From: Vermamoeba vermiformis
Taxonomy: Eukaryota
NCBI GenBank assembly: GCA_045837725.1
Contig: JBEWZL010000184.1
Span: forward strand, 248,001-312,000
DNA length: 64,000 nt
Direction: 5' to 3'
The translations under genes were made by a program, and so were the position numbers. The notes under the pieces are model-generated. The model worked only from the letters and a program-made list of their open reading frames with translations, had not been told where the DNA came from and made no database searches. Numbering within the stretch: position 1 is the stretch's first letter; each line of letters starts with the position of its first letter. Positions 2,495 to 40,851 of the stretch are shown piece after piece.

Positions 2495-5400
2495 ATGCTG
2501 CAAGCAGTAAGCATCAAGAACTACTTGTCGTTCAAGGAGCAGAAAAGGCTCCAAGTTCGGGATGGCAAACTGGTCGTTGTCGGGGAAGGTTAGTCGCTTG
2601 GCAAAAAATTGGATTAATAATAATTTTGAATAATATTCGTGTAATCGGAATACGAGTGCTATACTATTGGTTGGAATTCAGATCAACTATAAAAAAATTC
2701 TCTTTCAGCAATATTCGTGATTAATTTCATTTCAATAGTAAATATGATTAATACGGCTATAGTAATATATTTAAAATTGTTATTTCGAATTTGATCATTT
2801 CACTGAACGGTTTTTTTTACGAACAGACGGAGCGGGCAAAACAAATTTATTTAGAGCCGTTAAATTTGCTTTGCAATCGCAACCTATTCGATGGAACGGT
2901 GAGGCCATGTGCCCTTGGGATTGCAATGAAGAACTCGATGTCTCCATCGATGTCGACATGATCCCAGAAGACGTCGTAAGTTTCATCCTTAATATCGATT
3001 ACTATGAAGTATTAATTTTCCTTTTTAGGCAATATTACGAGATTTTATCACGTTCAAGTTATTTTCAAAGTTAATTGATTATTGCAAAGAAGACACTGGA
3101 ACGTACATGGATCAATTTGAAGCGTTCTTAAAGGTACCGCTTTTTCCGCCTTATTTTCATAATCTTAACTATACCATATTAGGACAATGACGTGTTTAAT
3201 CAATTAAGGCTCGGATATCGTAGTGAGGCCTTTAACAAGCAATATTTACAGCCGTTTTGTGAAACAGGCGTCAAAGGCCGCTATCAACTGATCTCGTTCA
3301 GACACAACACTCAAATTGATTTTTTTGCGCAGTGTTTGCCTGAAGACGTCTATAATAAGATAGATAAGGATGATTTAGACAAGCCACTCAATTTCTCAGG
3401 GTTCTACGGCAACAGTTATTTCACGGCTAAATGGGAACAACGAGCACTCAAGATGCAAGAAATAACAACTGGCATGCGTCAAATCTCGTTCAGTTTGCTC
3501 ATCAGAAAAATGGTTGCCACGCGATTTGTCTTCTTTTCTGACGTAAGCCCGAGACTTGGTCCCGTGAAATTTCGTCTGACAGTACTTTGCAGCACATAGA
3601 TTCGTTCTTGGCTGGCTCAGAGTCACTCGTCAAAGCGATAGACTATGCAGGGAGAAGCTCTTGTTCGAAAAGAAAATGAGTCGGACACGACAAGGCCGCT
3701 TGGAGTTCAAGACGATTCAAGAGCACATGAAGCACTTGGCCAATATCGTGCCTGATGTTGGTCTCACGGACACGACATCACGCCTCTCGGTGCGTTTTGG
3801 CGAGTCTGACACTAGCACACTGTTGCCTCGCGTATTTTTCACCGAGGTCGATGGTCACACTTTTGACGCAGGCACTGCCTCGAGTGGTGTCGCACGCTTG
3901 CTGACAATACTGACTATGGTAAGGCTCGGCACCTACATATAGTAGTACGTGATCTCGTACTGACTATTAAACTAGCTTCATACCACGGACTACTTGACAT
4001 GCTTCTTGGACGAGCCACTTGAAACTCTTCATCCCGCGCTAAGACATCACATGCGCGATCATTTCTTGACGGTCAAAAATAAGGGTAAGCTTAGCTATAT
4101 GATTAAAACGGTTGCTAATGGCCTCTTTAGCTATTATCATGATCACCCATGCTGGCGAAATGATTGTGCCGCCATTGTTGGACCACACTTACAGACTCAG
4201 AACGCAATTCAAAAATAATCAAGGCGCGTCAACTGAAGTGTACGATATCAAACAGGTCTTAAGGGCACGCAAAGATATCAAAATGGAGTTGATTAATTTG
4301 TCCGTGGAGTCCAGCTTCCGAGAAATATTTTTCACGCGGTCAGTTATTTTCGTCGAAGGTGTCAACGACAAACGAGTGCTGGACAGTCTCAGCTTTGTCA
4401 TTCGTCACAAAAAGAGCGTCAAACTGCACGACATCAAGCACATTCATTGGTCTGTCATTGCGATCGGCGGCAAAGGCCGGTTCCCCGCTGCAGTTCATTT
4501 AGCCAAGAGCATGGGCCTCGAGTGGGTCTGCATCATGGACTTGGACGCGCTGCTCCCCGACGACGAGCACATTCGCGCGCAGTTGAAAGAGAACGGCTCC
4601 AAGGCCAAGCAAATTGATGTGACATTCCACGAGTACAAAGACACGTTGCATCAAGTCTTGCAGGACCTGAACAAGATTGCCAACAAGAAAGGCTTGGCAG
4701 TGCCTCAGAACCCAAGTCCATTGCCTAGTCCTAGCCGGACTGTCGCAACATCTGTAGGCTCCCCGCCAGACCTTTTGCCCGCCCCTCCTCTCAGCCCTGC
4801 CAGCGAGAGTCTTGCTAGCGAAACACCCGTCACATCTCATCCCTCTGTCACAGGTGCCAACAACAACAATGTCACGCAACAACAAGCCAATGCTACACCT
4901 ACTATCACCATCTCATCGACTCCAACTGTCGTGCCTCAAGTGACAGGTGAAGACAGCGACTTGACCAAAGTGATCGAGTACATTAAAGACATCAAAGCAC
5001 GCGTGGACATTTCACTCAAGACTGTTGAAAAGGGTAAGTGACACGTGTCATTAAATCCAAATCGTTATTGTTGGCTAATCTTCAAGGACAGATCGTCACA
5101 AACTGGAGGCTCAAGGTGACTTGGAACGATGGAACTTGGCGAGCACACATCAATCAGCAGCTTATTTAGTGATTAAACAGCACTTCTTGGGTCCTAATGA
5201 GGACTACTTTAACACCAAAAATCACCACTTGGATGCGTTTTTGAATTACTGCAGCGAACGACGCGTCTTTTCATGGCGTAATGGCGCACTAGGTACATAT
5301 CGTAATCGTGATTATAGGTCTCATTATATTAATATATGCAAATTAGAATCATTGTTCCAGATCACGTTCCCGGATTTCACCAAGAGCCGATGGTCAAAGT

Positions 5401-19177: not shown

Positions 19178-22100
19178 ATGGAAATTCTTAGCCCTGCGAT
19201 GCACGTTCCCTTGATGCAGCCACCGTCCACAGCCGTTAATATTATCACAAATACTGCCGAAGACAAACAATTAATGGCAGAAATAAATAATACTCTCAGA
19301 CAATTAGAAAGGGTAAGAATTCTAATCCACCGAACCAGATTTAGTAATCCATTTCTAACTTCTGATAATAGGGAGACTTGCCATTTTATCGTAAACTCGT
19401 GCATTCTTTGCATATATCACTTGATATAGCAAAATGCTACATAATTCTAGCTCACTGTCCCCTTCTCATCAAACCAGATCATCGCGAGCTTCTCGGTATG
19501 TATACTCCAAAAGCTAAGAAATATTGCAATTATGACTAAATTAATTAGAGTCTATGGTTCAAGGCAATAGAATTTCAAATTAATTAACTCTTATTTTCAG
19601 ATGCGATATTTTCTTTCGATTGGCAGAAACATGACGAGGCGGCTATCCTAGCTTATACTAATTTTTTGGTGCATCTGAACGCTGCTGGAACGACGCATTT
19701 GGTTCGAACATTCGAATCCCTGATCCGAAATTTTAATCTGGTCGATCGAACCAATAATCGACGTAAGTTTTTTTAATAATTATGATCGAAAGTGATCTTG
19801 TATGCTTCATTTAATTATATGAAATCTAACCGTTTGTATTCTTCCCGAATAGATTCCAGAACACAGATCACGCGAGCGTACACACATGAGACGTTAAAAA
19901 AGCTGCTATGGATCATTCCAAGCAGTCCTACTATTTTATGGCCTATTTTAATGGATATGTTCCCTCATCGAGCTTTGGCTTCTGAGATTCAACGCACCTA
20001 CACCGCTAATCTGCTTCATCTGGTGGAGTACTGCCCAGTCCTTAAGGATAGGGTGATCTCCACCATCATTGATAAGCTGATTCAAATAGATGTACGTTAA
20101 TTTCCAAATCGCTAACGCAGCTCTTCGAATCCATGTCATCTGTCGATGCGCAACAGCAGATCTGGCCTCTCGTCAGCCTCGACAACACAAACGCACGGAA
20201 CGATGACTACATAGTACCTTATATAAGGGTGTCATTAGCGCAAATTGAAACATCGTATTTCAATTGACCGTCAGCAGCCCACGATCCCCCTCGCAAACAG
20301 CGAAAGACGACCTCGATCTGCGGGCCAAATACTGACTGACTTTAATGAGTATTCAATGCTCTTATTGTCCCCGAAAAGCGATGGCTACGGTTGTTATTCA
20401 ATGACCTGTAGTACTTCGTTCGAAGTCAGAACGGTTCGTGATCTGGTCGTTGACAGCTGTCATTCGCGCGATGGTGGCGGTTTGAGTGGTGACTTCATTA
20501 TTAGCTGGACGTGTCCCTCGTTATTTGATTTGGCGTGATGACGTGACACTGAGCATTGGGTTTGTTGTACAGTTCGAGTTGTGTGTTGAAGGGAGATGAG
20601 GATCTTTTAGGAGATCTTTGGTGATTTTAATATCGGACAGGTCTCGGTGCAATCGCGGGTGACTCCGCGTTCAACTGCACCTTGAGATCTAAATAGTATT
20701 GTTGTAATTGCTATCCCATTACTGTCTCTTGTAACAGATGTGCAGATCGAGACAATCTGCCTTCTGAATCTCTGTAGATGTCTCGAAAGAGAGTGCCTTG
20801 CCAGCCTCTCAATTAAATTGTCAAAAGAAATGAATTGTGATTTATTGTCACGCACCTGGTTTAGGTGGGTGGCGAGTAATGCGGATTTGCAAATCTCATC
20901 CCGAAAGATTGCTGGTTGTTGTGTTGATGAATCGTATGATTGGACCTCGAGGAGATGCGCGCGATAGCCTACGCATTTTCCTGTAGAGGTCCTAATGTTG
21001 TTTTTCTAGGTTGAAATCAAGCTCGAAGACCTTTTGGCAGATGAAGAAGACGATAAAGAAGACGGCGCAATTTTTGACGTAGAAATCGAACACCGCCAAT
21101 CAGAAGTCGAGGAGATGGCCGAAAAGATGGACCAGATCATGCTGGTAGTCGTTCCTTACATCGAGAGCCAGATAGTAAGTACAACAACGAATCTAATCAA
21201 CGTTGGATCTGTTTGCTAATTATTCTTAATAGAACGATCCTAAGACCCAAGAAGAGATCTTGGCTATTTTGTTACGAGCATTTGACGCGATCATTGTTCG
21301 AACACACCGATCCAAGTTCACTCAGTTCCTCATCTACTTGGCGTGCAGACTCGAAGCCAGCTTTGCTCATCAGTTCTTGAACTACTTGTGCCACAAGCTG
21401 TGCTATGATAATGGACCCATCTACATTCGACAAACTTGCGCTGCGTACCTGGGCAGTTTCATTGGCCGAGCGGCTTTTCTGTCCATCGTCACGGTCAAAG
21501 AAATTATCACATTGCTCGTCACGTGGGGCAACAAGTACTTAGACCTCTATGGCACTGAAATGCCCGACGCAGAAAAGCACGCACTGTTTTACTCGGTCTG
21601 CCAGGCCCTCTTCTACTTGTTCTGTTTCAAGGGTAGACTGCTACTGGAAGCCGGTGCCAAATCATTTTTGAAGCAGTTGCCAATTCAACGCATCATCCAC
21701 TCGAACTTAAACCCGCTAAAGGTAAGTCATTGCAAAAAGTTCAACGTCATGATCCGGATCTAATCAAATTTTTAGATGTGTTTGCCGGCTGTAGTCAGAG
21801 AGTTCAGTAGACTCAGCAAAACATTCCCGCAATGGGACTGCGCATCAGTTATGACCAAGAATAAGACCCTAGTCTTGCCTACTCAAACACAGTTCGGCGG
21901 TGCCAACAAATTGGACTCATTTTTCCCCTTTGATCCGTACCTCTTGCGAAGGTCATCTAAATACTTCAATGACGGATATCAACAATGGACTGGGCCCGAA
22001 GAAGACGACGAAGAATATGAAACTGAAGATGAAGGCAACGGTCACTACCATAACGGGTAAGTCTTTGCAGCATCCGTGATCTGAATCTAGATCAAAGTTT

Positions 22101-22485
22101 AGTACTAAACTAACGCTTGCTATTATTAGACATACTTATAATGACACACCCTCGGGTTATGTTAGTGGCTTCAGCAGTCCTCAACGAGGTTCATTCCTGG
22201 CCAGATCTCCATCACGAGCAATTATCAATAGCGGAAAATCAAGTAGGAATAACAGCTTAAATAACTCACCGCTGGATATGGATATGGCTAGTGACGATAG
22301 CTATAGTAATGGAAGCCCAATTAGAGTAAGTCCAAGTTTCGTACCGTATCTGTTTTCGTTCGTTGAAACTGACTTCGCCTTTTTAGAAACGAAGCTTATC
22401 GATTAGTCCGTCATTTAGAGGCTCGGGAAGTTTTGAACGAGCACAATTTTTGGTCGAAGACATGATTGAAGATGAATATAATTGA
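19178..22485 (+). CDS. RRN3: RNA polymerase I transcription initiation factor RRN3/TIF-IA
   Basis: FPH..YTANLL, LIQID|VEI, EKMDQIM, THRSKFTQFL, AAYLGSFIGRA, FYSVCQALFYLFCFK, LNPLK and LDSFFPFDPYLL are hallmark RRN3 segments. Confidence 0.95.
20092..21009 (+). ncRNA. Putative structured RNA filling a 918-nt RRN3 intron
   Basis: The intron is more than 15 times the typical length here and GC-richer than its neighbours. It has many nested helices with G-U pairs on the + strand and several C-GAAA-G loops. Confidence 0.55.
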
Positions 22486-22871
22486 AAGAAATAAGCCAAG
22501 AATGAACAAAAGTAATTGTAAATTGTGAATATGAAAATAGTTCGTGTAAAACTTGTGAATAGAAAGACAGCGAATGAAATAAAAACTTGTACAATTAGAA
22601 TTTGGTCGTAAGGCCGTTTAGTTCGCCTCGCGTGATCAGCTTCGTACCCGACCGTTACCACTTTTAACTCCGCAACCGAAAGCAAGAAAATTTGAGTCGG
22701 CACATGCACTACTCCTGTTCTAATAGTACACGTGTTCTTTACTTCATACAATAATTATTAGAATTATTTCGATGAACGCCCCATCATCAAACAAAAAAGG
22801 AAACCTGAAATTTTTTTTGTACTCGACCAAAATTCAATCATTTACCTATTCAGCACCACAACCAGCAAGCA

Positions 22872-23075
22872 ATGAACGGTCAATCTACCTCCGGTAACGG
22901 TCTGCAAGCAGTTTTCAACAACGGAACTTTTGGGCTTACCGTGATCGCGGTTCCCACTTTCCCCACCCCCACTCCCACGCAGTCGACTTCCCCTACCACC
23001 CCTGAACCCACCTACGAGCCAACTTACGAGTGTTCATACAACTCAACTGAGAACTGCATGAGCGAATGGGCTTAA
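22872..23075 (+). CDS. Small Pro/Thr-rich hypothetical protein (67 aa)
   Basis: Intronless ATG ORF with many C-ending codons, a C/A-rich leader and a downstream AATAAA near 23200. Confidence 0.45.
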   Translation: MNGQSTSGNGLQAVFNNGTFGLTVIAVPTFPTPTPTQSTSPTTPEPTYEPTYECSYNSTENCMSEWA

Positions 23076-23449
23076 TGGATAAGATTCCAACAGTTCTGTC
23101 GAATCAGGTCTCACCACAGCTCACCGAATTGCTTGCTGATGTTGCAAGCATTGGACAGAATATCTCTGCTTTATCAGACGATTTGTCATAGCAAATTTCA
23201 ATAAAACGAGAGATATCTCATTTTATCTAATTTAACTTTAGATGTTGTAAAATTGTACTTGCTACGGTTGACTGTATTGAAGAAGTTAATGCACATGAAG
23301 CATCGTCGTAACGAATATGTTACGTTCTAACCGTTGCATTCCAAACTTATCGTATGCGCCATTGGTGTTAATGGTTTTTTGGGGTCTAAATTTAACGACA
23401 AAGAACCGAGAAAAAATATCGCATTCTTTTTTGATCTTCTACAAGGCAC

Positions 23450-24697
23450 ATGCAAGCAACACAAAACAAACGAAAAGCAGAAGTCGATAATAACGATCGT
23501 CCGGCTAAAAAGCAGGCAACAGAGATGTCTAGCAAAGCCGATCTACACAATATCTTTCTGCTCGATGAATTAGTCGAGCAGATCGTGTCAAATTTATTAA
23601 CAAAACCCAAGGCGATTTTAAATATTGGAATGGTCTCTAAAAGGTTCGCTGAGATTATTATTTTAATACTTCGAATTTTAATTGATTTATTTTTGTTGGA
23701 TCAGGCATAATCAATTAGTTCACAGCAAGGCAATGTGGAAACGATTTGGGTTCACCGATCATATCAGCAATGCAGATATAATGCCTTCAGTGCACCTCAA
23801 ATTTTTATTGAACAGTTTGAGGATCAACCACATCCGCAAGAAAACTGCTCGAGAGCTCATTTGGTTAGAAAAAGAGGCTAACGATATGTACGGCGAAGGA
23901 GTATATGGGATAGAGGTTATTCAAGACTATCTCAATGCCACATCTGTCAGAGACTTTCTTATGAACAAAACGGTCACTGACGAAGCCTTTGGTGCGCTGT
24001 ATCATATAATGAGCAGGACATCGCTATTAAGACATCAAATTGATATGGACACGTTTGTGGAGCTGATCTTGAGCTCCGAAGAGCAGATTGAGCAAGAAAA
24101 ACTGAAACGTAAGCAACCAAATTGAATATCGTTTATTAAAAGCGCTTATTTTAGGCTTTGCCGTTAATCAGAACTCGCAAGATCAATTTTATCCCTATTC
24201 CTTTTCTGGATCGTACACCAGCGACCTGGATGATGGGGTTGCTTTCTACCGCCCGTTGCTTTACCTCGCAGAAATGACCGATGAAAATAAGCACGCTTGT
24301 GTTCTTAAGAGGTTCATCAGCCCCACTAAATTTGTTATTATGATGCAAGGCGCTAGCAGCAAATATTTCATTAAGGTAAAAATCATCTAAAATTGAAAGA
24401 GTAATTAATTAACTCAGATCTAATATTTTATACTAGCTCGATATGTCTAAGAATATTATAGAATGTTGCGGAGAGCTTCAGACCTATTTAGGCTACACTC
24501 AAAACAGTTTCCCACTTCAAACGCTGTTCCAACAATTCAATCCCAAATTCGCCGAATTATTCGAAGTGCCACTGACGCCTCGGTTAGCAGAGCTTGAGCG
24601 CAGTAAAATGTGTATGTGTCATTTTGACATGTTATCGGTGCTTGGTGGCCTTGAACCGACAAAGAGAAACATTCCATTTCTGAGAAAGAAAATGTAA
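23450..24697 (+). CDS. F-box-like protein, N-terminal paralog of the gene at 701
   Basis: KAILNIGMVSK|HNQLVHSKAMWK matches KAIFNIGMVSK|HNEYVHSLKMWK, with an intron at the same position. Four exons splice in frame. Confidence 0.7.
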
Positions 24698-24745
24698 CGG
24701 AAACAAAACTGGTTTTTTATATACAGGAAATAAAGAGTCTATCTA

Positions 24746-27700
24746 CTATTTCTTATTATTAGTATTATTGTTGTTATGCATGTTAGGACTCGTAGCACTC
24801 TTACTCGGCTTACTCGATTTAATTTTGTCCTTGTCTTTCACGTTGCCTAAACTCGATTGCTTATGCATCTTTTTGATTTCTTTTTTGTCTTTTTTATGCG
24901 CCTTGTCATCGTGTTCATTATCATCAGCTTTTTTGGCCTCCTTAGTCTCGTCATTATTCTGATTATGACCTTCTTTAGGGTGCGCTAAATTTCGTTTGCT
25001 CGTGCTCGAAAACGAGTGTTTTAACGACTTGTAGAACGATTTCAAAAAGTTTTTGGACTGTTGTCGCTGGATCTGGGCTTTCTTGGCGTGTTCTTCATTC
25101 GTTTCTTCCAATTCTTTTTGCTTAGTATTGCTTACGACGATATTACTCATGTCGCTAAATGACCGCTTTCGTCTTGGCGTCGGAGAATTTTCACTGTCAG
25201 TGCCATTTTCTCCGCTGGTCGCCAAATGATTGGACTCTTCAATCTCTTCTACAGTCGGCTTATTTTGGATAATATCGTCAGTAGTCTTGCTCTTCTTTCG
25301 TTGCAGTAACGGTTTCTCATTGTTATTGTTGTTCACGGATCCTTTGCCGATCTTCGTGACTGATACAGACTTGCTATAATGAGCTCGACCAGGGCTATTA
25401 CCATAAAAGGTAAGTGTCACGTGACTTAATAATCTCCATTTTTAACTTACCTCTTGTCGCTTGCTCGGTCGGTTGAGGGTGACACGCTTTTGACGGAGAG
25501 TGAAATCTTTGTTGGTTCATTCTCTTTGTTAGTATCGACTTGATCTTCTTTTTTCTCGTTTGGCTCTTTCACAATATGGTCTTCTAATCGTGTAACTTTT
25601 TCGGGTTTTTGTTCGGAGCTCTTTGGGCTTTCTAGGGCATGTTCTTCTTTCACAATATGGTCTTCTAGGCGTGAAATGTTTGCACCAGTGGCAGTCTCAG
25701 TATTCTTTTCATCTTGCCTTGTCTCAACGACCTCGCTAGCCTTTGGCTCAGGTTGACCAACCACAGCTGGTTCAACTGCTGCTGTGACACCTTGCTCTTC
25801 TTTGTGAGGGCTCGTGTTGCCAGAGTTCGGACTCGTATTGTTATTGCTGTTCGATTGCTGCGGTGTCTCGTGCCCGTCTCTCACGAACGAGACTGAGCCC
25901 TCGAGTGACTGCGATTCGCTGATTTCATTGAACGAGTTAGTGCGAGACACAACACGATCAAGCTCGCCTGTTCTAACTGATAATCGCATAGGACTGATAA
26001 TACAAAATATACATTAGTTTAATTGATTCATCGTCGATCATTTACACTTTGTCTGGGTACCTTAGCATGTCTCGAGAAGATTTCTGTCGGGTCGGTTCGG
26101 GACTGCTATTTTTGCTTGAGTTACTTGTGAAGCTGTCCACGAGACTAGCCACGGATACTTCCGTCTCAATCCTGCGCACTGGTGACTCAGGCCGGGGCTT
26201 AGTCACTGCACTTTGATTCGCAGCGGCGTTGAATGACGCGACACGTGACAGCACGGGTGAAGACGTTTGGTCGCCCGATTGGCGCTTGGGACTTGTAGCG
26301 GCAATAACGCGTTGGAAGGCTGAAGGCATGCTGCCTGAGCTCGAGTCCGTGCTCGGGACACGTTGGTGCTCTACTTTTTTGGGCCCAGCAGGAGCTTGCT
26401 TTGTGCCTGCTTTTGGCGGTGGACCATGTTTGACACCTGTCTTCGAAGGCGCGGTGCCTGGCTTGAACCCGGCTTTAGGCGGTTGTCCCTTTGCCGAGCC
26501 AATCTTCACGCCACCAGGGTTCTTAGCAACAGGAGCAACAACTTTCGTGGCTCCAGGAGGCGGCGTTGTCACTTGAATGGCCTCAGTGGCTGGCTCTGGC
26601 GTGGGTGTTGGAGTCGGTGTTTGCGCAGGTTTTGTCTCGTCTTTCTCGGGGATGACAGGCACCATAGCACCACTGCGAGGCCGTGACTTTTTAGTAGCTG
26701 GGATTGGCAATGGTGGGGCAGCTGCGTTTAGAATGCCCTTGGCGTTGGCTACAAGCAGACCTTGCGGCGATGATGCTGCACGTGACACAACGGGACTGTG
26801 AGTGACACTGCCGTTGTTGTGCGAGGCTGGTTTGATGGCACTGCCCGTTGAAGTTGTAGAGCCCAGTGAGCCTGTGCGACGAATGTGACGATTGCCGAAC
26901 TCGAGCCTTGACACTTCTGACGACGAGGACGAGTCAGAGGCCTCGGCATCGGATCCTGCATCGGAGTTGTGGTCCAATGCGTGCTCACGAATCTCGTCTT
27001 CTTCTTTGCTAGCGGCTGTTTCGGACACTTCGAGCACGTCAGGCAATGACGGCTGAATAACGGTAGGTTTAATGGCCTTCATCGATGATGACTTGCGTAG
27101 CACTCGTGCAGCGGGCTAAAAATAAATACATTAGTATATATTTAAGGTATATTAATAGGACCGGTATACCTTGTCTTCTTGAGCCATCGTCTTTGATTTT
27201 TTAAGTCCTGCTCGTGATTTTCTTCGAAGTTTTTCAATGACTTTCTGCCTACTTTCAGTCGTTGTAGTGTTGTTGGCTTTTTGCGTGGCAGTCGGAATTT
27301 CAACAGGCTTAGTTGTCGTGTTCGTATTGGTTTGGACTTCGGTCTTAGTGGCATCAGTGTCTTTAGAACTCTTGCTCGGTTGCGATACTTTGACCTTAAA
27401 TAACGTCGATCTATTGTTCTCGTCATCTCTGCCTTCTTTTAACGGGTATTCCGTGCGAGATCTGCGTTGAAATTTCAACTGCTTCTTTCGTGCAAAATTG
27501 TACTTCTGTTGGATAATCGAATTACTACGGAACTTCTTCATATTTTCTTCGAGATTGGCGTTTTTGTTGGAATTTCGCGTCGTCTTTTGTTGTTTCATTT
27601 TTGTCATCAAACTATTGATCGTTGCTTCGTTCAACTGTAGAGCGACTTTTTCATGAACCGCATCGAATCCCCTATACAACGCATTATTAGCCATATATAG

Positions 27701-35081: not shown

Positions 35082-38000
35082 ATGTAAATGCATCACCAGT
35101 TTCTAACCTTTACTGACACTTCTATCATTAGGATGCAGCTCAATAAGGTACAGTTGAGCTCCGTTCTTTTAATTTGTATATTATGTATCGTACCAGTGCA
35201 GCCATTTAACTGCGCGACAGGTGAGTAAACCGCAACCACCACTTATTCCTGACTAATACCAAATCAGACACGTATTCTGGGGGACCCTATTCCTTCCATT
35301 CTATTGACAGCACCGTCCTCTCGCTTATCCCTACGCTGTTTCCTGAAAGCACGACTCCTAACGCAGCACTTGTAGATCCAAATGTTGACGTTGTGGTGAC
35401 GTTCACTTCAGTACGTATCGGTTAATATTGTTAGTATAATCATGCATCCAGTCTCATTAATTTCGTCATTACAGAAAGCTACGATGAATATAACGTACCT
35501 CTACGAAGGAGCAGGTTATGTGAACCAAGTCGGGTAATTAACTAACATTGCGGCACATACGATTCAATCAAGTAAATTGACACTTGACCTCGGTATCAGG
35601 TACTACCTCGTCAACCCTACGACCTTGGCGGCATATAACAAGACAATCATCTTCCCTGCGGTTCGTAACATTTCGAAGGGCGGTTGTAATACACCGGGAG
35701 ACACGGTCTCAATCGGCCCATTCGCCGCAGGTATGAAACTGCGCTCGCAGCAAATGCTGATCATCATTTAATCGGTTCTTGCAGGCACCATATTGGGCTT
35801 CTTCGTCAATTCAGACGGCTACGAGGTCAATCCTTACTACACGTTCTGGAGTTACAACACTAGCAAGATTGTCAATCCGGACGGCTACAAACACACTGCA
35901 TGGGCTCGTGTCAATGGTGTAGTCATGATGGGCTTTGAGGACTTGTATGGTCTCGGTGACAAGGTATGTAACGCGAACACACTATTCCGGATGTGAGTCA
36001 AATTAATCATGTTTATTTTAGGACTATAATGATGCTATGATTACTTGGGCCGTTGATGGTAACTACACCGCGGCAGTCCCTGATTACTCCGGTGGTTACG
36101 TCCAAACTTGCGAGAGTACATCCATTTTCAGCTATGTTCAATACAACTGTTTGCAATACGCCGTGCTTCAAGGTCTTACCTCTACTTCTTGCGTGTCATA
36201 CATTGGCGTTCCTAGTGGCTGGTCTATTGCCGACAATACTGTTGCTTCCCGCACTGCCCTCAAAACTTACGCTTCGAGTTTGTTCACCAGCGGAGTTACA
36301 TGCATTCTCTTCTCTGACGGAACTGGCTTAGACGTCTCTGGCAATACCTGCAGTGCCACTATCTCTACTTACAACTCAACTTGCTACGCTGTTGATTGCA
36401 GCTACCGTCTCCTGTTGGTCGGATCTGCTATTGCTGGCTGCACATCCACAACCAGCACGTGCACAGCCTCAGTTGCTTCATCTATCTTGTACCAGACTCC
36501 AACTACCAAGTCCTCTACCGATAGACTCTATCCCTCCGAGTATGCTACCTACTTCAATCCGACTGCTACTTCCACCCCATTGAAAGTGAACTTCACTTTG
36601 ACTAACAAGAGCCCTCTTGTTGACGTCATGATCGTGCTCGACTTGTTAGGCATGACTAGCAACACTGTCGATCAAGTCAAGAACTACGCCAAGACCTTCT
36701 TCAACTCGCTTACCAATGCTGGATACAGCGCTCAAGTCGGCTTAGCCACCTTCACTACCTCAGGTTCTACTCATAGTGAGAGCTACTACTCTTATCTCAC
36801 GTCGTCATCTTCGACTCTTTCATCCAACATCAACAGTTTGACTTGGACATCCACATCCACTTCGACTAGCCCGTCCCTTAGTCTTCAAGCTATCGCTTCT
36901 GTAATGCAAAACTCAAACGTTGGTTGGAGAACAGGTGCCTTCAGCTCCGTTATGATCATCACTTCTCAATCGTACAGCACTTATCAAGACTTGTCTTCCC
37001 TCAGTATTAGCACCGGTGTCGTGCCTCTGTTCCTCGTCTTGAACACTAACAACGACAAGACTGCCTACAATTCCTACTCATCTTTGGCATCTGCTCTGCC
37101 TTTGTCATATGCCAGCTTCATTTCTTCGCCGACTGCTTGGTACTCGACCGGCCCAACCTTGGTTGCATCCATGGTTACGTCAGTGGTTGCTCGTCCTTTA
37201 AGTGACTCTTACGGCTTCTTGACTGCCACCGCCTCATCTACCTTGAGCGTCGGAAGCTCAACCGTACTCTACTTCACCGCTACATACCCTGCTAGCTTGA
37301 CTGCCTCTTCTGTCTCATGGCCTGTCACAGCTACTGTCCGATTGTTTGGCTACGCGAGCCCAATCCTTATCATCTCAGCCAACACTCCTCCTACCTTGAC
37401 CTCGATCGGCACAGTCTCCGTAGCTGAGAACTCGAACACTACCATTACTTTGAAGGCCTCTGATGCTGAAGGCAACACCCTCTCGATCTTGTTCACGTCT
37501 GTCACGCACGGTTCATTGTACACGACCAGCGGCGCTGCTGTCTCACTCAACACTGCTTACAGCTCCTTCTCAGTCGTCTACGTTCCTACTACCAACTACT
37601 ACGGCGCTGCTAGCATCGGGTACAGTGTGACTGATGGATGTGCAACGACTTCTGGCACTGTGACTCTCAACGTGACCTTCGTCAACCAACCGCCTGTCGC
37701 CAAAGACTTCACTTTCACAATCTCAGAGAATGAAGCCACTTTGTCAAAGCAACTTATTAACTTCACGAACTACATCTCTGACGTTGAGGATGCCACTTCG
37801 AAGTTGACCGTGAAGATCTTGACCATTCCTACTTCCTTGGGCACTTTGCAATACACGTCTGACGGCAGCACTTACAAGAGCGTCTCTTCTCTTACCACCT
37901 TGCCTGGCTTGATCGTCCGCTTCATACCGACATCTTATCAATACGGCACTGTGACTTTTACCTACTCCGTGACTGACACGAATGGAGCTACTTCCAACAC

Positions 38001-40851
38001 GGCCACTGTTACTGTCATTATCAATTTCTCCAACACTCCCCCAACGTCAGCTAGCTTAACCGTGACTACTGCTCAAGACACAGCTGTTGCGATCGACAAG
38101 CTCTCGTACTACGATCCTGACGCTGGTCAAACGATCAAGTTGTACTTCGCTTCATTGCCCACTGGTACTTTGAACTCTGTCAGCACGAGCTCTGCTGTGT
38201 CATTGTCAACAGCCTTGACCTACACCGCTAGCTCTTCGTGGAACTTGACTTACACGCCCCCTGCTGGTGCTTATTCTGCTAATGGCGTCGTGTACACCAC
38301 GTTCACGTTTGTCGTTAACGATGGCTACGCTAACTCGACGATTTACACTGTGTCGATCTACGTGACCAAAGCTGTTGTCGTGAACACTGCTCCGACAGCT
38401 AAGGACTTCACATTCACAATTAACGAAGACGAGACCAGCACCACCGCCCAGACCATCTCTTTCAAGCCCTACATTAACGACACTGAAACTCCGAACAACT
38501 TGACCGTAGCTTTGTCATCGCTCCCTGACTCATCAAAGGGCTCCGTTCTCAACTCTGACGGAACTTCTTTGGTCGTTGGCACCACGGCCATTTCAAGCGC
38601 CGTTCGCTTCGTTCCTGCACAACACCAGTACGGCACAACAACATTTAAGTACACCGTCACTGATCCTAGCGGATTATCCGCAACTGCCACTGTCACGGTG
38701 ATTATCACTTTCATCAATTACCCACCGACTTCAGAGAACGTGACGATCACGATGAATGAGATCAGTCAACAGAACGCGGCTTTGGCTGCTCCTGTCGCGA
38801 TTGCTGGCGCTGACATTGAGAGTACTTCACTGAGCTTGGTCATCGTTACTCTGCCTTCAAAGGGTCTGCTGATCAATCCCAGTACCGGTAACTACATCAC
38901 TGCAGTACCTTACACACTTAGCGGTGGCTTGTCGTGGACTGTCAACTTCTTGCCTGCTCAATATGGCTACGGAACTCCTTACGACACGTTTACTTACAAG
39001 GTGTACGATGGTTCGAGCTACAGTGGCATCTACTACGCAACTATCAATGTTAATTACGTGAACCAACCTCCTACTGGCCAATCTTACTCGGGCACCACCA
39101 AAGAAAACACGCCATTGAAGGTCACGTTATCCGCATCAGATCCCGATGATGACACTTCGACATTGGACACGCTCTTGCTCTCGTTCTCTTCGACTACTGC
39201 CGGCACTTTCTACACCGATTCTTCGTTGACCACAACGATCTCAGCTAACACTCAACTCACTGGCACTACCTTCTACTTTGTTCCCAGCGACGGTGTTTAT
39301 AGCGTGCCAGCTACATCTCCTGTCGTCTCATTCACGTTCAAGATTGTTGATCCTCATGGCTTGACCTCCACATCAACTTACACTGGTGTCATCTACGTGA
39401 CCTTTGTTGATAAGCCTCCTTACTATGAAGGCGCCTTGAACATCACTGTCTACGAGGAAGCCGTCGCAGCTCTCAGCTTGGCTTCACTCGGACAAGTCAT
39501 CAATAAGAATGATGCACAGACCCCGACCTACACCATCACCATTACTCAGATGATCTCGCGAGGTTACTTGTGGGAATGCACTGACGGCTCTACCTCATGC
39601 ACGCAGTGGAACATTTCAACCACTCCTTACGTCGTCAAGAACACTGGCTACACCTTGTACTTCACCTCGTTGACTGGAGATCACGGAGAATCACCTGACT
39701 ACTACTACGCTACCTTCAAGTTCACCGTCTCAAGCTCTACGACCTCACTCGTGAGCGCTGAATACACGTACACAATCTTCGTTCTGCCCGTCTGGCACCC
39801 ACCAGTGGTTGTCCCCAGAACATTTGCCGCGACTCCTTCTCGTACCTACACTGACGAGAACACACCTTTTGTCTTGGAATGGACTGCCTACAACGTTGAC
39901 AAAGAGTTCGACAATTCGACATTGACTTCAAGAGTGTCAGTGACCTCTGATTACGCGTCCAAGTACTACTACTGCGTTGAGTCCTCCGACAATGACTGCG
40001 TTCAGGGCAACGAGATTACATTGCCCGCAACTATTACGGCCCTCAGACCTGCTTTGTGGCGAATTCTCTTCGTGCCCGAGACCGACACTTATGACACGCT
40101 CAAGTACGCGACTTTCACGTTCCTTGCCACCAACACCGAGACTGCCTTGTCATCTACTGGTGTCAGAGCTATTATGGTCGTTCAACCAATCAACAAGCCT
40201 CCAACTATCACCGCTGGAGACATCACTGTTCAAACACCCGATGACTTGACTATTGGTATCGGAAGTGTCTCCGTTGCTGACCCTGATGCTGGCTCCAAGA
40301 ACGTTTACCTTGAAGTTTCAGTTGTCAGTGACACTACAACCTCAGTATCGCTCTCAGTTTCGACCTACTTCACGCACACTCATTCAGTGGCTCCTCCTTG
40401 CACTCAGACTACCAACCAATCGTTCACTTGCACGGACTCACAATCGAATCTCCGCACTTACCTCGCGTCTCTGTACATCAAGCTTGGCGACAACAGCACG
40501 TCCTCAGTGATGTTGAACATCTACGTGAATGACTTGGGTCACACTGACAAGCTCAACAGAGCCCTCAACGCGACTAAGAACATGACCATCACGATCACCG
40601 ATCAAAGTGCAACCACTTCGAGTAGCCCAACAGTCGATAATGGTGTGCCTATTGGTGTTTCGATTGCTGGTGCCGCAGCATTGGCCGGAGCAGCAGTGTT
40701 GATTTGGCGATTGAAGAACAAAGCTGGCCCTGCTGACGATTACTTCCAGTCTCTCAACTCTGGCTCGAATGATGCAAGCACCAATCCGCTGTATCAAGAG
40801 CGCAATCAGACTGTCCAATCACCGCTCTATCAAGCAAAGAACGTTGTGTAA
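35082..40851 (+). CDS. Sib-like (similar to integrin beta) adhesion protein: DUF4114-like, vWA, tandem cadherin/Big-like repeats, TM, NPxY tail
   Basis: Signal peptide; GFEDLYGLGDKDYND; vWA DVMIVLD..VGWR; repeated N.PP.A..FTY.V.D units; Gly/Ala-rich TM; cytoplasmic NPLY and SPLY. Confidence 0.8.

Follow-up and report, generated by a model that had tools for sequence, protein, structure and literature searches.

Intron 4 of RRN3, the gene for a Pol I initiation factor, probably contains a new functional RNA element and not junk, because this stretch is strongly conserved, is folded, and persists in RNA at about the level of the message. It is best read as a module that is either stable as an RNA after excision or active in cis as a splicing switch. 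Our preferred interpretation, which we hold tentatively, is that a new conserved structured intron RNA spans about 20166–20890 and remains stable once excised. An earlier sequence-only reading had proposed, in broad terms, a functional intron-borne RNA that is either hosted by the gene or involved in splicing control; this idea is supported by the conservation, the reproduced sense-strand fold, and the intron RNA described here. All positions are those of the window, the whole 64-kb stretch of DNA that was analyzed, and conservation was assessed against relative R (metagenome contigs L001 and L002), the sole relative in the comparison.

The gene and the landmarks of its fourth intron are listed here.
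19178..22485, + strand: RRN3 (Pol I initiation factor) coding region, 9 exons and 630 codons, from the exon model and its translation
20092..21009, + strand: RRN3 intron 4, 918 nt, GT..AG, phase 0, GC 0.458, from the RNA joint and the orthologous intron in R
20092..20120, + strand: conserved 5' end of intron 4, with donor GTACGT, TAA at 20098-20100, and a branch-like CTAAC at 20112
20992..21009, + strand: branch-point motif CTAAT and acceptor TAG of intron 4, from the sequence and the exon model
20812..20817, + strand: ATTAAA hexamer in intron 4, kept in both species

Pfam RRN3 matches fall in exon 4 (E = 2.4e-18), exon 5 (E = 0.013), and exon 6 (E = 9.9e-48), and RNA contigs carry the splice joints of introns 3, 4, and 5. 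Exon 4 (Pfam RRN3 positions 137-210) and exon 5 flank intron 4, which reads GTACGT...CTAAT...TAG. The joint 20091>21010 is exact in RNA contigs of X4, X9, and X15 (3/3 runs), bearing out the claim that an unusually long intron lies at 20092-21009; together with CTAAT at 20992-96, this joint identifies a spliceosomal GT-AG intron. The other RRN3 introns (n = 7) measure 54-105 nt with a GC content of 0.26-0.41, and the GC content of intron 4 is exon-like (RRN3 exon GC, 0.444).

The donor GTACGT has a C at +4, where the other RRN3 introns have GTAAGT or GTATGT. Because the donor sequence GTACGTTAAT, with its in-frame TAA at 20098-20100, is identical in R, unspliced RRN3 RNA would end translation after two extra codons (VR*). 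At the opposite end, R has CTGAC where the branch motif CTAAT aligns. The motifs named from the sequence alone are all present (CTAACGCAG at 20112-20120, GTGATGA at 20535-20541, CTGA at 20549-20552, and CTAAT at 20992-20996), but the acceptor in CTAACGCAG, which had been put forward as a cryptic branch point plus acceptor near the donor, is used by no RNA contig. Internal splice sites that could define a cassette or poison exon are in no case common to both species.

The orthologous intron in R occupies the same site and measures 916 nt (L001 453-1368) versus 918 nt. Fourfold-degenerate sites are 53% identical to R (91/172) and five small introns of R are 57% identical to the window (179/314), versus 75% for intron 4 (654/877). 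Fourteen perfect runs of 12-39 nt each add up to 273 nt, with the longest reaching 39 nt in the intron and 41 nt in exons. Indels are mostly not multiples of 3 and every reading frame is broken; such indels, together with perfect runs as long as exonic ones, indicate that the conservation is not coding. A missed coding exon or nested gene was likewise rejected, as the four intron ORFs have no Pfam match above cut-off, the indels break their frames, and the RNA joints skip all 918 nt. Outside the central region described below, the most conserved parts are the following.
20166..20313, + strand: conserved block A, about 90% identical to R, with perfect runs of 39 nt (20272-20310) and 28 nt (20223-20250)
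20646..20690, + strand: three-tier hairpin (block E), from the alignment with R, with perfect runs at 20648-69 and 20671-82
20713..20805, + strand: blocks F and G, with perfect runs of 33 nt (20713-45) and 15 nt (20791-805)
20873..20887, + strand: last conserved block, a 15-nt perfect run

The hairpin proposed at 20639-20690 is kept in R: its loop and inner two stems are invariant, and its outer stem is held via one-sided changes. A compensatory CG>UA pair is found at 20748/20785 in the hairpin 20747-54/20778-85 of blocks F and G. Identity to R drops to 0.45 across 20918-21003. The RNA runs also contain near-identical strains, in which 14/14 exon variants are synonymous. Intron 4 is no more variable per site than whole exons in these strains (X4, 1/505 vs 3/1055; X9, 3/479 vs 7/1054; X15, 5/261 vs 8/681), and none of its variants lies inside a perfect run (0/8). 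A full-text literature search for three of the block sequences found none of them.

Over the whole intron, structure is only modest. Folding z values are -3.24 (+ strand) and -3.12 (- strand; 20 shuffles each), alignment-level z values are -2.3 and -2.4, and there are 13 compensatory pairs versus 12.0 in column shuffles. About half of the hairpins listed in the sequence-only reading are lost in R. The pairs 20169-74/20595-600 and 20398-406/20445-53 and the hairpins at 20276-20326, 20781 (TCTC-GAAA-GAGA), and 20847-75 are not kept, and hairpin 20942-20992 is kept in part only. The arms of the pairing suggested at 20231-37/20536-42 are invariant and pairable, but RNAalifold prefers 20228-35/20543-50 plus 20238-41/20533-36.

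Whole-intron z values of just about -3 on both strands, and the loss of many listed hairpins, could mean that the intron is nothing special, being either the decayed remnant of a transposon or introner or an ordinary long intron with chance pairings. We consider this very improbable, and conservation already appears largely to refute it, as the orthologous intron is alignable in a relative at near-saturated neutral divergence. No second copy of intron 4 was found by blastn within the 64-kb window, the intron holds no long inverted or tandem repeats, its ORFs have no Pfam matches, and neither viral_contigs nor genome_contigs contains the conserved blocks. A transposon or introner origin was rejected because repeat finders (inverted, direct, tandem) and blastn against the window gave only 12-19 nt chance matches; the repeat or transposon match that had been named as contrary evidence was not found in the 64-kb window.

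Stronger evidence for structure comes from a central domain, whose parts are listed below.
20228..20550, + strand: central folded domain in the RNAalifold consensus, closed by the invariant strands 20228-20241 and 20533-20550
20266..20515, + strand: domain core with a sense-specific fold between a C-rich 5' arm and a G/U-rich 3' arm
20297..20460, + strand: rod of nested helices common to both single-sequence MFE folds
20311..20446, + strand: variable helix, in which the 5' strand 20311-20331 pairs with the 3' strand 20430-20446
20385..20411, + strand: apical hairpin (helix 14), in which both partners have changed in 3 pairs

The core 20266-20515 is a genuine folding outlier that is sense-strand-specific in both species, with borders picked after inspecting the alignment. 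Its z values (100 dinucleotide shuffles each) are -3.93 in the window and -3.71 in R on the + strand, and -0.21 and -1.75, respectively, on the - strand. Control values from the window (n = 48) have a mean of -0.27, an sd of 1.09, and a minimum of -2.54, with 0/48 at or below -3.7; the largest strand difference among 24 control segments is 2.96, and the core exceeds all of them. GC skew flips from -0.25 to +0.33 across the core. In the comparison of folding energy with shuffles, a check suggested by the earlier reading, the sense strand of the core lies far below controls and the whole intron scores similarly on both strands.

The invariant strands 20228-41/20533-50 and the nested helices loop out about 320 nt, and GTGATGA and CTGA sit in the 3' closing strand. 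The RNAalifold consensus comprises 91 pairs: 80 are invariant, 6 have changed on a single side, and 5 have changed on both. These 5 two-sided changes are matched by 22/500 shuffles, with the structure derived from the same alignment. Independent MFE folds of the two species have just 28/143 pairs in common, and the rod shared by both consists of helices 20297-301/20456-60, 20306-10/20447-51, 20332-36/20425-29, 20378-81/20416-19, and 20385-88/20408-11. The sequence of the variable helix differs between species while complementarity is kept within each: duplex energies are -15.4 (window) and -16.8 (R) versus -12.0 and -7.8 with swapped partners, and are equalled by 12/500 and 4/500 shuffles.

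Projection of the window MFE structure on R over 20225-20550 keeps 10/29 changed pairs versus a null of 31%, and column-wise covariation in the alignment with one relative is not above controls. This covariation test has little power because a single relative is available. Local 160-column windows within 20092-20600 are mostly unremarkable because the helices are long-range. The alignment that the sequence-only reading called for thus shows block-wise conservation far above neutral but no significant column-wise covariation.

Part of the intron is also found in RNA.
20064..20712, contigs without strand: part of intron 4 seen in RNA contigs of X4, X9, and X15

Intron contigs cover 20064-20596 in X4 (depth 9.95), 20111-20589 in X9 (depth 5), and 20452-20712 in X15 (depth 5.1); mRNA contigs have depths of 12.4-20.1, 8.04, and 4.3, respectively. 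Positions 20092-20712 are thereby represented at 0.5-1.2 times mRNA depth in 3/3 runs, a level comparable to that of mature RNAs, as in stable intron RNA. RRN3 introns 3 and 5 have no RNA contig cover, which argues that the signal from intron 4 is not DNA contamination. Contigs over 20713-21009 and over the 3' exon-intron junction occur in 0/3 runs; a retained or detained intron would be represented in full, with both junctions, in polyadenylated RNA. Such gaps are not proof of absence. Contigs convey mean depth alone, with neither strand nor ends. The small-share metatranscriptome rows X16-X20 were left out of the RNA counts, as was the raw-read run X21, from which 0 reads aligned.

Clustered DNA sites would also produce block-wise conservation with variable linkers. 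The blocks could then be transcription-factor sites of an intronic enhancer or promoter, with the RNA signal reflecting slow removal of an overlong intron in an organism adapted to introns of 50-100 nt. R retains the TATA-like TATATAAGG of 20219 in the form TAAATAAGG, and the lack of significant column-wise covariation points the same way. We nevertheless regard a DNA element as improbable, given that both species show the strand asymmetry of folding, which exceeds that of all 24 control segments, that the variable helix keeps its complementarity, and that intron RNA reaches 0.5-1.2 times mRNA depth.

The state of the intron RNA differs among runs. The intron contigs of X9 and X15 are separate from exon 4, and the X9 mRNA contig is unbroken across the joint, which fits a free intron product. 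The X4 intron contig is continuous with exon 4, so that the 5' exon-intron junction is seen in 1/3 runs, and X4 exons upstream (20.1) exceed those downstream (12.4) by about the intron depth. This pattern fits an exon-linked transcript, unspliced or prematurely ended, better than a free intron. The X4 and X9 contigs end at 20596 and 20589, at the 3' foot of a predicted outer helix (20186-96/20577-88).

It is possible, if doubtful, that the conserved fold and the weak donor GTACGT delay splicing of intron 4 or cause early 3'-end formation within it. In that case, a large fraction of RRN3 messages would end with exon 4 followed by VR*, the stop codon being at 20098-20100, and output of the Pol I factor would be tuned, for example, during growth or encystment. 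At 20093/20094 the X4 de Bruijn graph branches, and the upstream contig (20.1) gives rise to two paths, one unspliced (9.95) and one spliced (12.4). Because 20713-21009 is uncovered and the spliced contig of X4 crosses 21010 without a break, intron-bearing RNA seems not to reach exon 5. The donor GTACGTTAAT and its in-frame TAA are identical in both species, and ATTAAA at 20812..20817, also kept in both, is a possible internal poly(A) signal. Structured long introns that gate splicing offer precedents in excerpts from published work: a zipper stem with an alternative structure gates splicing of the long RPL7B intron (PMC12311795), and decay-promoting introns have been reported (PMC4695336). 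In X15, by contrast, exon contigs have the same depth on either side of the intron (4.3 upstream, 4.33 downstream) despite intron RNA at 5.1; in X9 the graph does not branch at the donor; none of the contig ends was reported to carry a poly(A)-tailed loose end; and there are no conserved internal splice sites. The 273 invariant nt in 14 blocks are also a large amount for a splice gate, and RRN3 is, to our knowledge, not an RNA binder. Titles and opening lines of abstracts on RRN3 intron retention include none on such an intron, and a literature search on TIF-IA, Acanthamoeba, and encystment gave only papers without TIF-IA.

We also considered whether intron 4 hosts a known RNA that has diverged too far to be recognized: intronic snoRNA(s), RNase P/MRP RNA, or telomerase RNA. 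Ribosome-biogenesis genes, RRN3 being one, often host intronic small RNAs, many short invariant blocks with variable linkers amount to high information content, and the intron RNA is present at a low, mRNA-like level. The telomerase RNA of Ustilago maydis, as excerpts of its description state, is a long structured ncRNA processed from the 3' UTR of a Pol II protein-gene transcript, and these excerpts and those of related literature name no amoebozoan telomerase RNA (PMC9564094). We judge such a diverged relative quite unlikely on the following grounds. Rfam 15 was scanned at a permissive E-value on 19800-21300 and the R contig and at gathering score on the whole 64-kb window. The latter gave 0 matches to Rfam families, among them RNase P/MRP, SRP, U3, snRNAs, self-cleaving ribozymes, and riboswitches, so the statement that intron 4 matches no known family holds. 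Up to E = 10, the window gave just two chance matches to bacterial sRNAs (Ysr35, 11.5 bits with a cut-off of 428; Ysr100, 15.8 with a cut-off of 47), and R gave two (ToxI and PK-BYV, far below cut-off). A tRNA scan found none.

For a box C/D snoRNA we looked for a RUGAUGA close to the 5' end and a CUGA close to the 3' end, about 60-200 nt apart, a terminal stem, and a conserved 10-20 nt guide immediately upstream of D/D'. The box C-like GTGATGA with CTGA, earlier taken as a snoRNA sign, does not have this arrangement: the single RUGAUGA (20535) is followed by CUGA 7 nt downstream and next at 20764, and its flanks are not complementary. R does not conserve the stretches that precede CUGA at 20332 and 20764, where a guide would lie, and Rfam gave no snoRNA match. 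An H/ACA arrangement (hairpin, ANANNA hinge, hairpin, and an ACA 3 nt from the 3' end, with conserved pocket strands) was not seen on reading the alignment by eye, and there is no Rfam match. A hammerhead ribozyme was rejected because no CUGANGA core is conserved. A telomerase RNA would carry a single-stranded template complementary to about 1.5 telomere repeats. No 7-mer of (CCCTAA)n, as expected for a TTAGGG-type template, occurs on either strand in either species, with the qualification that TTAGGG-type may not be the telomere repeat of this organism. Shared repeat-restart strings, such as a 13-mer inside 20534-20546, are present and are not evidence for a telomerase template.

A more far-reaching proposal, which we consider unlikely, would make the module the RNA subunit of an undescribed ribonucleoprotein and a new RNA family, made only by splicing of RRN3 pre-mRNA. 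It could regulate ribosome biogenesis or growth arrest in trans, or could even be the telomerase RNA of this lineage with an unusual template. RNA dose would then be tied to RRN3 expression, because splicing of this pre-mRNA would be its sole source.

For the stable intron RNA that we prefer, the module would be transcribed within RRN3 pre-mRNA and the intron then spliced out at 20091/21010, a step seen in the RNA contigs. Thereafter a stable RNA of roughly 0.5-0.6 kb, made up of the 5' two-thirds of the intron, would remain near the level of the mRNA; the presence and level of this RNA are observed, and we infer whether it is free or exon-linked. The fold and bound proteins would shield it from exonucleases, the invariant blocks would serve as protein or RNA contact sites, and its output would match transcription of the gene for this Pol I initiation factor one-to-one.

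RRN3/TIF-IA is a growth-regulated switch of ribosomal RNA synthesis, and its known control is at the protein level, through phosphorylation and turnover. A folded, deeply conserved RNA of several hundred nt inside the RRN3 gene, with an abundance in cells like that of the message, would add an RNA layer to this control, perhaps as a splice or termination gate on RRN3 itself or as a by-product RNA that reports RRN3 transcription. The module is a candidate new RNA family with no Rfam match, and intron 4, single-copy within the 64-kb window, is a clean test case for functional long introns in a tiny-intron protist.

Several known systems resemble intron 4 in part. Like the telomerase RNA of Ustilago maydis, to the extent of the excerpts in hand (PMC9564094), it reads as a structured ncRNA within a Pol II protein-gene transcript. 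The Ustilago RNA derives from a 3' UTR, whereas the one here is intron-derived and has no TTAGGG-type template. Among intron-hosted ncRNA genes are snoRNAs and Drosophila RNase P/MRP RNA. Intron 4 shares with them a conserved structured RNA in an intron of a ribosome-biogenesis-related Pol II gene, and hosted ncRNAs are released by splicing; unlike them, it lacks box C/D architecture, shows no H/ACA arrangement by eye, and matches no Rfam family, and at about 0.5 kb its apparent size greatly exceeds that of a snoRNA.

The introns of DBP2, YRA1, and RPL30 are autoregulated. As with these and the RPL7B intron, in the excerpted account (PMC12311795), RRN3 intron 4 is unusually long in a short-intron genome, has long-range helices between the 5' splice site and the branch point that are conserved across species, and combines a non-consensus donor with an early stop in unspliced RNA. 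Those introns are bound by the RNA-binding product of their own gene, and RRN3 is not known to be an RNA-binding protein; the conserved part of RRN3 intron 4 is much larger, and an alternative-structure switch there is only putative.

In animals, sisRNAs are stable intronic RNAs. Yeast linear stable introns persist under TORC1 inhibition and, as the excerpted report describes them, are defined by a short distance from branch point to 3' splice site and not by sequence conservation, with the whole intron persisting (bioRxiv 10.1101/426049). RRN3 intron 4, in contrast, has 14 invariant blocks and a conserved fold, and its 5' two-thirds only are found in RNA. What it shares with yeast stable introns, within the scope of that excerpt, and with sisRNAs is an intron sequence that persists at an mRNA-comparable level, a link to the control of growth and ribosome biogenesis, and an output tied to transcription of the host gene.

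The RRN3 gene of the window is divided into nine exons, with intron 4 set apart from its neighbours by length and composition.

Features of RRN3 (Pfam matches from single-exon searches)
19178–22485, + strand: coding region, 9 exons, 630 codons, every border GT..AG
Exon 4: Pfam RRN3, E 2.4e-18, profile 137–210
Exon 5: Pfam RRN3, E 0.013
Exon 6: Pfam RRN3, E 9.9e-48, profile 307–476
20092–21009, + strand: intron 4, 918 nt, phase 0, GC 0.458

The top named relative of exon 6 is Balamuthia mandrillaris RRN3 (45% identity), which marks the host as eukaryotic and perhaps close to Amoebozoa. Comparison with the seven other introns (54–105 nt, GC 0.26–0.41) and the exons (GC 0.444) shows that intron 4 has roughly ten times its neighbours' length and an exon-like composition. 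Elsewhere in the window, ORFs encode Arm, Kelch, PH, and kinase domains. An uninterrupted 1609-aa ORF (36022–40851, + strand) carries VWA, Cadherin_4/5, and Big_9 domains ("bacterial Ig" and "bacterial cadherin-like"); its length and lack of introns are unusual in this window, and most of its domains are bacterial. Another ORF (4103–5041, + strand) contains an OLD-like TOPRIM domain (E 7.6e-11), better known in prokaryotic defence nucleases.

Among the 24 sequencing runs listed for the stretch, four were aligned to 19600–21750. Three of these (X4, X9, and X15) are Logan contigs from three studies under three organism labels; raw RNA reads of X21 gave 0 alignments, and the results on splicing and intron RNA rest on the other three. 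One contig in each of X4, X9, and X15 contains the joint 20091>21010 (GT..AG), skipping 918 nt, so that intron 4 is spliced exactly at the borders predicted by the sequence-only reading in 3/3 runs with contigs. The joints of intron 3 and intron 5 (21174>21233) are also present in all three, the latter reported one base further left in X9 and X15 because of a C at 21174, the final base of exon 5 (C for A, ATA>ATC, synonymous). These exact joints indicate that the runs contain RNA. A cryptic acceptor had also been proposed; the motif CTAACGCAG is present at 20112–20120, but no contig of X4, X9, or X15 uses it, and it reads CTAATGCGGAAG in the relative R described below. Protein P0001 from JGI shares 97% identity with exon 6; it is a 346-aa ORF on a 3016-nt contig, uninterrupted across aligned exons 6–9, whose start lies as late as the ninth exon 6 codon. 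This suggests a transcript contig with introns 6–8 spliced and its upstream part blocked, perhaps because intron 4, intron 5, or both are retained.

Metagenome contigs scanned with exon 6 yielded two loci, L001 and L002. Their overlapping parts match completely (631/631 within the intron), and they were therefore counted as one relative, R; because all introns are present, they are genomic. L001 aligns to 19633–21946 as one single blastn piece. The orthologous intron of R lies at the same codon boundary, is 916 nt long (L001 453–1368), and shows strong block conservation.

Identity between R and the window
Exons: 0.80–0.87
Protein: 0.91 over 528 codons
Fourfold-degenerate sites: 0.53 (91/172)
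Five small introns combined: 179/314 = 0.57
3' UTR: 0.72
Intron 4: 654/877 = 0.75, 80 gap columns

Conserved blocks of intron 4 (+ strand)
20166–20313: identity ~0.9
20370–83, 20447–20515, 20533–53, 20648–82: conserved blocks
20713–45, 20773–805, 20873–87: conserved blocks

Linkers between the blocks are variable and rich in indels. The two introns share 14 perfect runs ≥12 nt long (273 nt in total), the longest of which, 39 nt, lies beyond chance expectation at 53% neutral identity; that intron 4 is nothing special seems very improbable. The conservation is non-coding, as most indels have lengths not divisible by three and a wobble pattern is absent. Position 20194 is the sole mismatch in a conserved 30-nt segment (20182–20211), with C in the window and T in R and X4. 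The T version contains the 7-mer AACGTAC, exactly complementary to the intron 4 donor GTACGTT, perhaps by chance. On the 3' side of RRN3, L002 2209–2363 jumps from window position 22596 to 24795 within 154 nt. About 2.2 kb of the window, with ORFs at 22809–23075 and 23435–24125 (+ strand), is absent from R there, so the two genomes differ at this point by an insertion, a deletion, or a rearrangement.

Near-identical strains in the runs differ at 14 exon sites, 14/14 synonymous. Per-site variation of intron 4 is no greater than that of whole exons in X4 (1/505 versus 3/1055), X9 (3/479 versus 7/1054), or X15 (5/261 versus 8/681). Given this exon-like rate and the synonymous nature of all exon variants, intron 4 evolves at a rate several-fold below that of synonymous sites. 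Perfect runs make up 198/621 covered positions and contain 0/8 intron variants, an absence that is weakly significant (about 0.05).

Described beforehand as highly structured, intron 4 earns that term weakly as a whole and more clearly in its central domain (20228–20550). For the whole intron, z was −3.24 (+ strand) and −3.12 (− strand) with 20 shuffles per strand; RNAalifold on the two-species alignment gave −2.3 (+) and −2.4 (−) with 60 column shuffles, and 13 compensatory pairs versus a shuffled mean of 12.0. When the window MFE structure was projected on R, changed pairs across the intron were kept at a rate that random canonical column pairs also reach. The core of the central domain (20266–20515) folds sense-specifically in both species: sense-strand z is −3.93 (window) and −3.71 (R), antisense z −0.21 and −1.75 (100 dinucleotide shuffles each). 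Control folds of 24 window segments (250 nt, both strands) had a mean of −0.27 (sd 1.09, minimum −2.54) and a largest strand difference of 2.96. The asymmetry arises because a C-rich 5' arm pairs with a G/U-rich 3' arm (GC skew flip), bearing out for this domain the earlier suggestion that the sense strand can be told from G-U pairs.

Nested helices common to independent MFE folds of both species (+ strand)
20297–301/20456–60: shared helix
20306–10/20447–51: shared helix
20332–36/20425–29: shared helix
20378–81/20416–19: shared helix
20385–88/20408–11: shared helix

The independent folds share these five helices, yet only 28/143 pairs are common overall. Flanked by two invariant anchors, strands 20311–31 and 20430–46 vary between species and keep their pairing within each: the duplexes reach −15.4 and −16.8 kcal/mol versus −12.0 and −7.8 with swapped partners, and 12/500 and 4/500 shuffles equal the native duplexes. 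The RNAalifold consensus of 20225–20550 contains 91 pairs, of which 80 are invariant, 6 differ on one side, and 5 on both; its pair-change values were reached by 22/500 shuffles, with the structure derived from the same alignment. Single-sequence folds of the domain projected column-wise kept 10/29 changed pairs, on a par with the null. That 20228–20550 folds as sense-strand RNA is likely, mainly from thermodynamics reproduced in two species and one helix-level compensation rather than statistically secure covariation.

Individual pairings from the sequence-only reading fared unevenly in R. The hairpin at 20639–90 is kept, with invariant inner stems and loop (20646–20690), and 20942–92 is kept in part. 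Both strands of 20231–37/20536–42 persist, but RNAalifold pairs them in a neighbouring register. Pairing is lost for 20169–74/20595–600, for the hairpins at 20276–326 and 20847–75, and for 20398–406/20445–53, a pairing that is also incompatible with a conserved helix; at 20781, an A-run replaces TCTC-GAAA-GAGA. A further hairpin (20747–54/20778–85) shows a CG>UA exchange between the species. Two-species folding found no conserved fold in the final 200 nt of the intron.

Intron 4 RNA is present at mRNA-like depth in all three runs. The X4 intron contig (20064–20596) has a depth of 9.95, versus 12.4 for the spliced contig and 20.1 for the upstream exon contig; X9 (20111–20589) has 5 versus 8.04 for mRNA, and X15 (20452–20712) 5.1 versus 4.3. 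Introns 3 and 5 have zero cover past the bin overlap with exons, making genomic DNA contamination unlikely. Contigs cover 20713–21009 in 0/3 runs, and such holes prove nothing; the X4 spliced contig is unbroken across 21010. This evidence gives mean depth only, without strand or transcript ends. The X4 intron contig begins within exon 4, at the k−1 overlap of a branch at 20093/20094, whereas those of X9 and X15 have no attachment to that exon, and X9 mRNA runs through the donor in one continuous contig. Two readings therefore agree with these data: an intron-derived RNA that is free, accompanied by some pre-mRNA, or, in X4, exon-linked transcripts ending inside the intron. Our favored, still tentative, explanation is a stable intron-derived structured RNA. 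The persisting species would be an excised fragment protected by its fold, and the invariant blocks would be contact sites. A cis-acting splice or termination gate, to which the X4 branch depths, the conserved weak donor GTACGT, an in-frame TAA (20098–20100), and a conserved ATTAAA at 20812 point, is possible though rather unlikely; the two are not mutually exclusive. A DNA-level element plus slow splicing is doubtful. The RRN3 stretch also occurs near-identically in runs under at least seven organism labels, with small shares in root and biofilm metatranscriptomes; it may belong to a protist that is widespread and either free-living or associated.

The intron 4 module is outside every sequence-defined family checked. 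The Rfam scan recommended earlier returned nothing beyond chance hits in the intron 4 region, the R contig, or the whole window; ARAGORN gave no match, intron 4 ORFs had no Pfam match, and neither a (CCCTAA)n 7-mer nor a conserved hammerhead core was found. We rejected a box C/D snoRNA: GTGATGA (20535) and CTGA (20549) are invariant but 7 nt apart, and a terminal stem is lacking. Both belong to the 3' strand of the central domain's closing helix, and conservation in R was not found upstream of other CTGA boxes. Neither a second copy of the intron in the 64-kb window nor any long repeat was found, and the blocks are absent from viral_contigs and genome_contigs and from the text of every searchable paper. 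The available portions of PMC12133305 and PMC9564094 mention Amoebozoa in passing, without naming any amoebozoan telomerase RNA. A diverged member of a known RNA class is an improbable source. Judged from one relative and assembled contigs, intron 4 of this Pol I initiation factor gene is a real, unusual feature, and its module is a candidate new conserved intron RNA.

Introns of the structure-gated kind include, among others, those of DBP2, YRA1, and RPL30. In the portions of the sources available, intron 4 resembles the structure-gated RPL7B intron (PMC12311795) and decay-promoting introns (PMC4695336), and stable excised introns (bioRxiv 10.1101/426049) come closest in their way of working. 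It differs from the stable excised and structure-gated introns in its amount of invariant sequence, its partial intron cover, and its host gene.
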